Sequence record: NZ_CP061624.1
Direction: 5' to 3' (one strand)
Origin: a plasmid
Length of the DNA stretch: 6,078 nt
Position 1 is the stretch's first letter; the number at the start of each line of letters is the position of its first letter. A program made the position numbers. Shown here one piece after another: positions 1 to 3,000 of this stretch.

Positions 1-3000
1 CACATAGAGTCCTACAGGTTCGCATGCACCTCACTCGGGGCGGAAAAGGTTGAGGTCTTGCGTGCCGCTTTCAGGTCGCGATATGCGGCCTAACAATTCG
101 TCCAAGCCGACGCCGCTTTGCGGCGCGGCTTAACTCAGGTGTTAGGAAACACTGCTACCGTTATCGGATTTACTGCTTTACTACTAACCTTGTTAATTCA
201 ACATTTGCAAAATAGTCTGACCTTTCGATTGTTTGGGGTGAAATTCTTATCTTAAAAATCTAAATATTCTTTTAGATCTAATGCAGATTGCTCGATAAAA
301 TCGTATGTATTAATACAACGACAGTAAATAAATTTTGTTAAAACCTCTAAATCATTTTCTAGATTACGGTTAAAAATAATCGGTTCATGATGAGCAATCC
401 TGTTTCTTAATTCACGTAATTGATCTGTCCAATCGTAAAAAATTTGCCTGTTTTCAACTGTTGCATTAGGAAAAATAGAATTAAAACATCCCTGCCAAAT
501 ACGTTCTTCATAATTAGCCATAAGCATCTTTTGCCAGAATACAAATTTAAGCTCAGGGATCATTTTACTAGGCGAATCTGGGAACTTCTCTTTAGCACTA
601 TCAAACATACTTTTAGGGCTATACCTCCCTCTACGGCTAAGGCTTCGAATAAAAGCTTCATTTTCATGCCAACTATTTGTTTCATTACACCTAAAAGATA
701 TTTCTATTGCCTGAACAACAGCATTTCTCAGAACAACTTCAAAATAATTTAATAAGTAAAAAAACTTATTGGAAATTATTAAATTACGTTCATAAAGCAT
801 CAATACATCAGATTTTTCATATGGTTCACCTTTATCTTTATAGAAATTTTCATACTTAGATAAGCGTGGTATAGATAAAGCCTGCTCTATCTTAAGCACT
901 GCATCATTTGACAATTCCACCGTATATACCCTAATATATAGTTGTAAGTTTGAGAGACTGCGGATCTAAGATCTTCCCTCCCAAGCGCTAAGATTCAAAA
1001 AAGCCTTTCATTAACGTGAAAGGCTTTTTTCTTTTTTTGGTCAATTAAAAGCTTACATATTGATTGTAATTGAAATATTTTCTTGAGGGACATCAAAATA
1101 ATTAGCTAATAGTCTCTTAGCTTCAGGAATAGATATTTTATCCAGTGTTTTAGAAGAATTATCTTCATTTAATTTGGTAAATTTCAGCTCATTCAAATCG
1201 ATATTCATCTCTTCTAATGAACTATAAGAAACTGGATTCCGATTACCATCCCACATATTGGGAATAGATATATCAGCATATTCGGAGATATTTATTATCC
1301 ATCTACCATCTGCATCTTCTTCTTGAGATTGGCTGATACTAGATATTTTGCCAACTAAAAATGCAGTGTGATGATCAGCCTCTGGTTCTCCCCAAGATTG
1401 TTTCCTATTTTGCACACAAACTAGATAATCGCACTTTCCTGCATTATGAGCATTTAGTCTCCAAGACTGACTACCACCTTCTTTTAAAATTCTAGTCTTT
1501 CCACGAGCAGTTAGTACTACTACACAGTTATTATTCATAACACCACCAAAATATATAAACAAGCCTATACTACATTCAATATAGCTAAATTTAAACATTA
1601 GTACAAGCTAATACTAAGAAATAAACACCAACATACTAGAAAATAATTACATCCCAAAATCCATACCTCGATCTTGCTTAGGTCGAGGTTTTTCTATCTC
1701 TTGTTTACGCTCATTCATCTGGACGAGATTTTTTTCAATATCTCGGATGTTTCGAGCAAATTCTGCTGCGCTTTGGCTACTTCTGACGAGACAGAATGCT
1801 GTGTGGTTGAGATTCTCTCCAGAATTTCTTCGTTGTTGGCTGTGATAAGGCTCATCTCTCGGACTTTGCCATTGATCTGCTCGGTATAGCTTGCTGTACT
1901 TCGTTCTAGCTCGTGAAATTGCTTCTGCATTGTCGCTAATGATTTCTGTGCTTGCTGTAAGCTTTGCTGATCGCTCTTGATTGTCTTTGATTGTGCTGAC
2001 AAGGCTTGGATAATTTTGGTTTGCATTGTGTCTAAAGCTTGCTGTTGCTTCTGCAATTGCACTTGTTGTTGCATTAATTGTTGCTGTTGTTCTTCGATGA
2101 TTCTCAATAATTGTGTTTCTAATTCGGTCATCGTTTAATACCCCATTGGAATCATGTAGCCGTTCTGCCATTCGCCTGCGTTCTTGTTGATCTGAATACA
2201 TAGGCGCTGTGCTTTGCTGTCTGGTCGCTTGCATGTGCTGATCGTCAAACTGCCTCCCGATCGGTTCAAATGGTCGACCCTCATTTGCTTCTCGTTGATC
2301 ACGGTATTTAGCGTCTGCATCTCGCTGTACTTGTTTTTGGTGACGAGACCAAGCGAGAAAATTGCTATAAGCAAAATAACTGCTACTGAAATCAGTCCCA
2401 TATTCAAAGTGGTAAGTTTTTTCTGTACCGCTTGATTCTGGGCTTGTTGTTCTTGGCTCTGTATTTGCTCGTTTAATTGCGTTAAATGGCTCAATTTCGA
2501 TTGCAGCAAGGTTTGATACAGGCTTAACTGCTTCTCGACCGTCTGGGCGTTGTTTTGAATGCTCTGGGCTATTTTCTCGTCCGACTGTTGGATAGCGGTC
2601 GCAGTGATATTGGCTCTTATGTTCAAGCTGTCTCTGATAGTCTGTGACGTTTGTTCGATACCGCTCAGAAGTTGTTCCTCTGTATTCTTCAATTCGTTGT
2701 TGTACTTCTTGTCTATATTCGCCAGTAGCTCTAAAGCCTTGCTCATAAATCTCGCCCTCTAAACGGATGGGACGTTTTGCGCCCTCATATGGGTTTTCAA
2801 TGGATATGGAGTTTTTTACTTGTCGAGTGACATTGATTTGATTCGATTCAAGCCATTGCACCAATTCTTGCCGATCGGCAACATCACCATTGGCAACCGC
2901 TCGGTAAACACGTTGATGTAACTGCGCTTTAAAATCCTTAATATCTTTGGGTAGGTTCTTTTTATTTAAAAATAGCTGTCGATGCTCAGGATCATCGGGG

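Follow-up and report, generated by a model that had tools for sequence, protein, structure and literature searches.

A candidate antisense small-RNA gene accompanies the short Abi_2 protein of the Acinetobacter plasmid pRAY, whose PUA-like neighbour appears to be unrelated cargo

In the circular Acinetobacter plasmid analysed here (NZ_CP061624.1, 6,078 bp, in its full length referred to as the window), which is of the pRAY* type and 98.9–100% identical over its entire length to CP033564, NC_019311 (pRAY*-v1) and others, a gene for an Abi_2/HEPN protein (termed Abi) is located next to a second open reading frame (ORF2), whose product is predicted to resemble PUA-like proteins. This arrangement raises the question of whether both genes act as a unit. 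An earlier note, made from the sequence, had proposed that they do, with ORF2 as EVE-type sensor and Abi as HEPN effector of a compact defence or addiction module. A pairing of EVE and HEPN proteins would be novel as a defence architecture; according to the evidence, however, the genes are juxtaposed by chance. The sequence features on which the proposal was built, namely the Abi reading frame with its RNRIAHH motif, ORF2 and the hairpin at 997–1030, are real. What the comparison of related loci suggests instead is a different partner for Abi, a small RNA (sRNA) predicted to be transcribed antisense to its 5′ leader. The attachment of such an RNA gene to a large subfamily of short Abi_2 proteins appears to be new, as does the assignment of a fold to the unnamed plasmid-borne family of ORF2.

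The annotation of Abi as Abi_2 was already known, and on pRAY the gene has carried the label 'Abi-like protein', without a partner, from 2017 or earlier. We find this assignment, on which the earlier note had relied, to be sound: the protein matches the Pfam family Abi_2 (PF07751) with 31.5 bits at a cut-off of 25.6 (E 2.7e-7) over profile positions 8–182 of 184, and its RNRIAHH motif is invariant among 42 members of the family. Mutation of the equivalent R/H pair inactivates PbAbiF, as cited in PMC12373285. In fold comparisons, Abi shows the all-helical architecture of HEPN proteins with AbiF bound to its non-coding RNA (ncRNA) as best match, whereas profile searches of the Abi and ORF2 families against PDB sequences returned chance matches only. 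The gene is annotated from a GTG at position 920, but the alignment makes a start at TTG 914 (220 residues, M-S-N...) more likely, since this codon is aligned with the ATG-TCA-AAx of its relatives and GTG 920 is not. The candidate toxin is a soluble HEPN protein of 220 residues and not a small hydrophobic peptide, and we infer that it would act as an RNase toxin.

An indication of what accompanies this gene came from three related loci (L068, L071 and L073), whose regions upstream of Abi were aligned with the window. The comparison defines a conserved block of about 116 nucleotides (nt), which extends from an A-run ahead of the hairpin to the Abi start codon. Identity to the window amounts to 82–92% in the leader and 72–86% in the Abi coding sequence, and it drops to 12–36% in the flanks, where the sequence past the Abi stop codon or beyond the hairpin is unrelated; Abi travels with the hairpin and a 76-nt leader only. 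A fourth relative of 69% protein identity (L167) also has this leader, albeit with another inner loop, and in all four loci the hairpin is kept with Abi without ORF2. The block of homology among Abi modules includes the hairpin but does not reach ORF2, which assigns the terminator to Abi rather than to ORF2. The strong terminator that the earlier note had placed between both genes is thus confirmed as a structure but not as a mere spacer. In pRAY, ORF2 and the predicted RNA gene are convergent and share this bidirectional terminator, with Abi located beyond it. The hairpin would terminate the minus-strand transcript of ORF2 as well as the predicted plus-strand sRNA, and it would shield Abi from upstream transcription. 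In PLSDB, the leader was found in pRAY-family plasmids only. AbiD/F proteins are described as type III toxin-antitoxins with a cis-encoded ncRNA as antitoxin, and conservation is higher in their upstream regions than in the genes themselves (PMC12373285, PMC13064643, PMC12737573); at the level of sequence, the conservation pattern of the pRAY leader matches the one reported for these systems.

The same organization extends to remote members of the family. In a set of 80 metagenomic loci encoding short Abi proteins with 30–39% identity to pRAY Abi, an iterated nhmmer profile located a core motif of about 60 nt directly upstream of Abi in 49 cases. Read on the coding strand, the element starts with an A-run, a G+C hairpin and a T-run, continues with the core ...TCGTATGTCC-xy-GGGGGGAGGC-loop-GCC..C.A.GTCCC-zw-GGCTAGTG, and ends with a TATAxG block followed, after about 17 nt, by ATGTCAA. 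Two helices, H1 (7 bp) and the inner hairpin H2, are backed by compensatory changes, H2 occurring in the variants GGC/GCC, AGCA/TGCT, GGTGC/GCACC, GGTTTA/TAAACC and AGTC/GACT, and in pRAY as GATC/GATC, which is out of register in the MAFFT alignment. Standard pairs occupy 86.0% of the cells on the coding strand (75.8% in shuffles) and 93.2% on the opposite strand (93.5% in H1; 81.7% in shuffles), where about 40 cells form G.U wobbles that correspond to C.A mismatches on the coding strand. The covariation score is 0.34 on the coding and 0.45 on the opposite strand, compared to 0.17 and 0.23 in shuffles (none of 500 reaching the observed value on either strand) and to at most 0.12 and 0.17 after sliding of the partners. 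RNAalifold recovers the same helices from 39 distant sequences alone, with compensatory changes in 8 of 10 pairs.

Further properties of the element are those of a gene on the strand opposite to Abi. Viewed on that strand, the start-codon sequence ATGTCAA and the TATAxG block together yield TTGACA-N17-TATAxT. When 45 non-redundant elements were scanned at 12 consensus positions, the antisense promoter scored at least 10/12 in 37 of them (mean 10.1), the coding strand in a single one (mean 7.1); TTGACA is exact in 26 elements and the spacer is nearly always 17 nt long. All 39 elements with a promoter of at least 9/12 contain an intrinsic terminator on the antisense strand, which leads to predicted transcripts of 79–101 nt (median 88), and the canonical RNA carries the conserved unpaired stretches CCUCCCCCC and GACUUGUUGG. 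With a conserved near-consensus promoter, a terminator and a uniform length, the antisense strand is organized like an RNA gene. In pRAY-type elements the predicted RNA is 89–93 nt long, and in the window its fold, consisting of the H1/H2 stem-loop and the terminator, has an energy of –28.5 kcal/mol (z –3.98), with none of 200 shuffles being as good. The strong conservation of promoter and terminator would suit a type I antisense RNA that overlaps the leader of the toxin mRNA, should such an RNA be transcribed. No Rfam family matches the element in the window or in 14 related loci; weak Rfam matches at 991–1078 were discarded as they cover the terminator only.

Taken together, these features make it probable that Abi is an Abi_2 HEPN toxin with an antisense RNA partner of about 90 nt, in a variant of the AbiF type III systems. 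The module would span about 252–1038 and comprise the RNase gene and, antisense to the 5′ leader of the latter, a gene for a small RNA, in which a strong promoter, with its –35 box placed over the Abi start codon, would drive the transcription of an RNA composed of a stem-loop and an intrinsic terminator. An abundant and short-lived RNA of this kind could keep the RNase silent. It might do so by pairing with the Abi leader, to which it is fully complementary, a type I-like feature that would apply to any Abi leader, or by binding to the HEPN dimer in the manner of AbiF ncRNAs, or by both routes; the conserved unpaired stretches and covarying helices, as found in the protein-bound AbiFr or RCd22, represent a type III-like feature. 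If transcription collapses upon phage infection or if the plasmid is lost, the RNA would decay, and the RNase, now made or released, would cleave cellular RNA and arrest growth, resulting in abortive infection and possibly in post-segregational killing. The seemingly lone Abi gene of pRAY would in this case appear as one half of an RNA–protein module, whose RNA half is absent from Rfam and located on the strand opposite to that of AbiF ncRNAs. The idea of an addiction module survives in altered form, with Abi and an antisense RNA presumably taking the place of the pair with ORF2. The more far-reaching proposal, that a short-Abi_2 subfamily of more than 1,500 clusters is governed by an uncatalogued structured antisense RNA of about 90 nt as a hybrid of type I and type III systems, and that it may act as post-segregational killing module of pRAY, is offered tentatively, and we regard it as slightly more likely to fail than to hold.

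For ORF2, the earlier assignment as EVE/PUA-like protein stands at the level of the fold but not of the sequence. Profile searches matched no Pfam family at E ≤ 1, EVE and ASCH included, nothing in NCBIfam or PADLOC and no relative among PDB sequences. A confident structure model displays a PUA-like β-barrel of the EVE/YTH/ASCH group, with fold relatives that share only 7–19% of the sequence; a fold search in BFVD returned weak matches only, which were either uncharacterised or ASCH, and the protein also matches phrog_37247, a label without function. A longer form of 181 residues starting at ATG 1598 was dropped, as all homologues use the internal ATG 1538, which is preceded by GGTGGTG. Invariant residues include W26, Y38, N44, H56, F60 and R79. 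The conserved C-terminal tail (about 1053–1150 on the minus strand) follows the pattern LTIxEAKxGLAxxFGVxxxxIxITI and, since it also ends a protein with an unrelated N-terminal domain in L150 (3598–4329, minus strand), it constitutes a separable module.

The distribution of ORF2 is that of mobile cargo. Its relatives, found in 64 species-level loci, range from Proteobacteria to Chloroflexi, Planctomycetes and one archaeon, and they occur widely, on small mobilisable plasmids as well as on integrative elements and phages. Among the plasmid copies, 127 of 158 reside on mobilisable replicons, typically of the ColE1 type with a size of 4–7 kb and encoding MbeA-D, which lack Abi; ORF2 without Abi is shared with other plasmids, often in the vicinity of relaxase genes. 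According to Pfam annotation, other copies are found in an integrase island, in a conjugative-element region with a ParB-nuclease, ArdC and DndB, and in a P2-like prophage, where ORF2 occupies the cargo slot that separates portal and gpA. The prophage copy is found in Enterobacter hormaechei (L078:6001–6531), between the portal/terminase and the gpA replication gene, and it is in this slot that P2-type phages carry variable anti-phage cargo. In an archaeal contig, of Candidatus Nitrosotalea (NZ_RCMB01000012.1; L039/L042), two homologues with identical scores in hidden Markov model (HMM) searches are separated by about 12 kb, which may reflect a repeat or a duplicated element.

Most likely, ORF2 binds to modified bases of DNA or RNA, to the benefit of the mobile element. 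A reading that centres on this protein alone would make it a stand-alone reader of modified bases (or of single-stranded DNA or RNA) for plasmid establishment or anti-restriction, which shields foreign-methylated DNA from type IV nucleases in a new host, or else a small regulator acting via its C-terminal tail. It is in line with a PUA-like fold common to the sensor domains of VcaM4I, PD-T4-3, McrB-N, THYN1 and YTH proteins, with invariant residues that are compatible with a base-binding pocket, with the location of 80% of the plasmid copies on mobilisable plasmids, frequently beside relaxase genes, with the one homologue in the region containing ArdC, ParB-nuclease and DndB, and with the fact that the protein is never accompanied by a fused or conserved effector, the same small architecture being found in all of the best 150 matches of a profile search for effector fusions. 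We adopt this reading for ORF2 only weakly and give it a low probability.

A second alternative concerns Abi itself, which could mediate abortive infection as a single protein, with the upstream element being purely cis-regulatory. In this case, it would combine an insulating terminator with a structured 5′ leader or an operator that acts on the coding strand, and an antisense promoter would serve transcriptional interference only, without a functional RNA product. The best match of Abi in PADLOC is indeed a single-gene system, PD-T4-5 (E 1.4e-6, residues 13–186, profile positions 12–209 of 309), the antisense RNA is predicted and not observed, and the coding strand can adopt the helices as well (86% of cells paired, covariation score 0.34), which leaves room for a cis-acting 5′ leader; in pRAY the outer helix is even slightly better on this strand, where a G.U pair corresponds to A.C on the opposite strand. 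Several other observations likewise weigh against an RNA partner of Abi. The abiF motif (RF03085) was absent in Rfam scans of the window (E ≤ 10) and of 14 relatives (E ≤ 1), the scan for σ70 promoters on the coding strand found none for the Abi mRNA, and a search of the literature returned no transcript, toxicity or phenotype data for pRAY or the short-Abi subfamily and no pRAY transcriptome evidence. The iterated nhmmer profile found no motif in about 30 of the 80 distant loci, and the shuffle statistics given above ignore the phylogeny of the sequences. In an Abi relative of 62% identity (L166:1–248, on a short contig), the leader is absent and three TTTTGTCA repeats are found upstream, which may represent another regulatory solution or result from a miscalled start. 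Finally, the pRAY leader is not detected by a covariance model derived from the 39 distant elements, with no pRAY sequences included. The one locus that scores with this model is the bridging locus L086 (12.3 bits, E about 1), which nhmmer links to the pRAY leader (E 1e-6). We therefore make no claim of a proven common RNA family and regard the element of pRAY as a divergent variant in which the architecture is preserved. On the other side, pairing and wobble favour the antisense strand, which is also the strand on which promoter, terminator and transcript length are conserved, and an ncRNA is required by every AbiD/F relative that has been characterised (PMC13064643). A purely cis-regulatory element thus appears unlikely, and we prefer the reading in which Abi is paired with an antisense RNA.

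There remains the relation between the two genes. A total of 94 Abi loci, 10 close and 84 distant, were examined for ORF2, whose HMM matched none of the close ones and, among the distant ones, found no full-length relative but only the motif of the C-terminal tail. Conversely, the HMM of the Abi subfamily matched three near-identical pRAY-type contigs among the 64 ORF2 loci and none of the approximately 60 diverged ones. When all reading frames within 4 kb of ORF2 were clustered and the 107 nearest neighbours, forming the first half of the neighbour list, were subjected to a Pfam census, no recurrent neighbour family emerged; the commonest was a ParA-type ATPase (3 of 107), besides relaxases, TraD, RPA, a resolvase, phage structural genes, Fic and DndB. 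Relatives of Abi with 82%, 72% and 70% identity reside on a plasmid contig with a type IV secretion system, on a Rep_3 plasmid beside a helix-turn-helix gene and on pRAY-like backbones, which contain reading frames of 60 and 123 residues in place of ORF2. Both genes are thus very likely independent of each other, a possibility that the earlier note had allowed for, and its proposed two-gene module is not supported, since the genes are not co-conserved elsewhere. The region 252–1598, as far as can be told from sequence comparison, holds two unrelated cargo modules that came to lie side by side by chance, with ORF2 as an independent cargo gene, which is probably co-transcribed with mobC-mobA, outside of the Abi module. 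That ORF2 would sense invading nucleic acid and activate the neighbouring RNase in a two-gene defence or addiction system is in our view highly improbable, as the adjacency and common direction of the genes on pRAY-type plasmids, the EVE/YTH-like and HEPN nature of their products, the occurrence of both families in conflict contexts such as the P2 cargo slot or the ArdC/DndB region, and the known role of EVE domains as sensors in type IV restriction (PMC7641849) are opposed by the lack of co-occurrence outside the near-identical pRAY lineage, by the end of the Abi homology block at the hairpin, by the bidirectional terminator and the convergent predicted sRNA gene between both, and by a census of EVE proteins that reports no association with HEPN or Abi. 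As a separate observation, one distant locus (L091) harbours a short-Abi gene with its antisense-RNA element (2937–3039, minus strand) on a ColE1-type replicon (Rfam RNAI, 78.7 bits, 254–319), and the Abi module therefore also rides on small enterobacterial plasmids.

The remainder of the window, summarized together with the described features in Table 1, consists of the pRAY backbone and its resistance cassette. pRAY lacks a rep gene (PMC6160057, PMC5559437), and a ColE1-like replication mechanism has been proposed (PMC6160057). A non-coding region of about 1 kb (3860–4860), which is part of a backbone (1648–4769) common to many small Acinetobacter plasmids, presumably holds oriT and oriV; a Rfam scan at E ≤ 10 detected neither RNAI nor another replication-control RNA in this region. 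The published derivative pRAY*-delta1 with a size of 2,808 bp replicates (PMC6160057). This size corresponds exactly to the loss of the sequence between the first and last HindIII sites at 653 and 3923, a deletion that includes ORF2 and the 5′-terminal third of Abi, and since the derivative still replicates, neither gene is needed for replication. The idea that either of them would stand in for Rep is ruled out on the same grounds. Two reading frames in alternative frames are nested within mobA (1715–2131, 138 residues, and 2135–2746, 203 residues with a hydrophobic segment, both on the minus strand), both being kept among pRAY relatives, and relatives of the longer one adjoin relaxase genes in L015 and L036; we take this arrangement to be reminiscent of mbeB/mbeD inside ColE1 mbeA. 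The pentapeptide-repeat protein shows weak matches to the Qnr family and a weak NCBIfam match to the N-terminal part of HalA, the Hailong anti-phage effector (37.8 bits, cut-off 250).

Table 1. Coordinates of annotated and predicted features in the window (strand relative to the record).
Feature	Position	Strand	Evidence or remark
Abi_2/HEPN gene, candidate toxin/effector RNase	252..920	−	annotated from GTG 920, 222 residues
HEPN catalytic motif R172-N-R-I-A-H177-H178 (Rx4H then H)	387..407	−	read from sequence
Predicted σ70 promoter of antisense sRNA	908..937	+	promoter scan, 10/12 matches
–35 TTGACA	908–913	+	overlaps Abi codons 3–5
–10 TAATAT	932–937	+	18-nt spacer to –35
Predicted antisense sRNA, ~95 nt	944..1038	+	candidate RNA antitoxin/regulator of Abi
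sRNA 5′ stem-loop	outer helix ~948–956 with 978–986; inner hairpin 962–966 with 970–974	+	fold
sRNA 3′ part	terminator hairpin 997–1030, then U-tract 1031–1038	+	
Bidirectional intrinsic terminator hairpin AAAAAAGCCTTTCA-loop-TGAAAGGCTTTTTT	997..1030	both	terminator scan and conservation
ORF2, 161 residues	1053..1538	−	N-terminal PUA-like (EVE/YTH/ASCH-fold) domain, acidic linker, C-terminal helical tail of ~30 residues
mobA	1647..3461	−	
mobC	3451..3858	−	
Pentapeptide-repeat reading frame, 228 residues	4861..5547	+	Pfam Pentapeptide families
aadB cassette	split over both window ends		

If the proposed relationship between Abi and its antisense RNA holds, control by an RNA antitoxin would reach a large and unstudied branch of Abi_2 proteins on plasmids and genomes across Proteobacteria, and it would define a second, differently wired relative of the AbiF–ncRNA systems, which are discussed as ancestors of Cas13. 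The module would be a candidate for the stable inheritance of a widespread Acinetobacter resistance plasmid or for the exclusion of phages by it, and pRAY, a clinical gentamicin/tobramycin-resistance plasmid without rep or par genes, may be stabilised in this way. On the practical side, cloning or deleting such Abi genes without the upstream 120 nt may prove toxic or misleading. ORF2, in turn, defines a PUA-like family of considerable size, which has no name and is characteristic of small mobilisable plasmids.

The readers of the EVE (PF01878), YTH and ASCH type, such as PH1033, THYN1, VcaM4I (EVE-HNH), PD-T4-3 and the N-terminal domains of McrB, are related to ORF2 by fold, but ORF2 shows no profile match and an identity of 7–19%, and it always stands alone, with its own C-terminal tail motif and in no case with a nuclease as fusion partner or companion. 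With PD-T4-5, a single-gene anti-phage system of E. coli listed in PADLOC, Abi shares the Abi_2-type protein and the organization as a stand-alone gene, whereas its match covers only part of the profile. Also close are the type III systems of the AbiF/AbiD family, which include AbiD, AbiD1 and AbiF of Lactococcus, AbiF-RCd22 of C. difficile and PbAbiF-AbiFr of Prevotellaceae (PDB 8VZ6). Common to these and to pRAY is a conserved structured RNA linked to the toxin gene, as seen in the leader, the 49 of 80 distant loci and the covariation; the predicted pRAY RNA may likewise bind to the protein. The differences lie in the size of the protein, which is about 220 residues compared to 300–360 in AbiF/AbiD, in the absence of the Rfam abiF motif and in the presence of one stem-loop instead of the two tandem motifs of RCd22. 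Moreover, the AbiF ncRNA is located upstream of the toxin and co-transcribed with it, whereas the pRAY RNA would be encoded on the opposite strand, with its promoter over the toxin start and transcription directed away from the gene, in cis-antisense to the leader. In type I systems such as hok/sok and SymE/SymR, a strong promoter within the toxin gene or at its 5′ end gives rise to a short RNA antisense to the toxin leader. The predicted pRAY module resembles them in this antisense arrangement and in a toxin promoter that is weak or not identified, but its toxin would be a HEPN RNase of 220 residues, whereas small membrane peptides prevail among type I toxins, and the unpaired conserved stretches and covarying helices suggest more than antisense pairing. 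As in the type I systems, the module is plasmid-borne, and its layout would be compatible with post-segregational killing.

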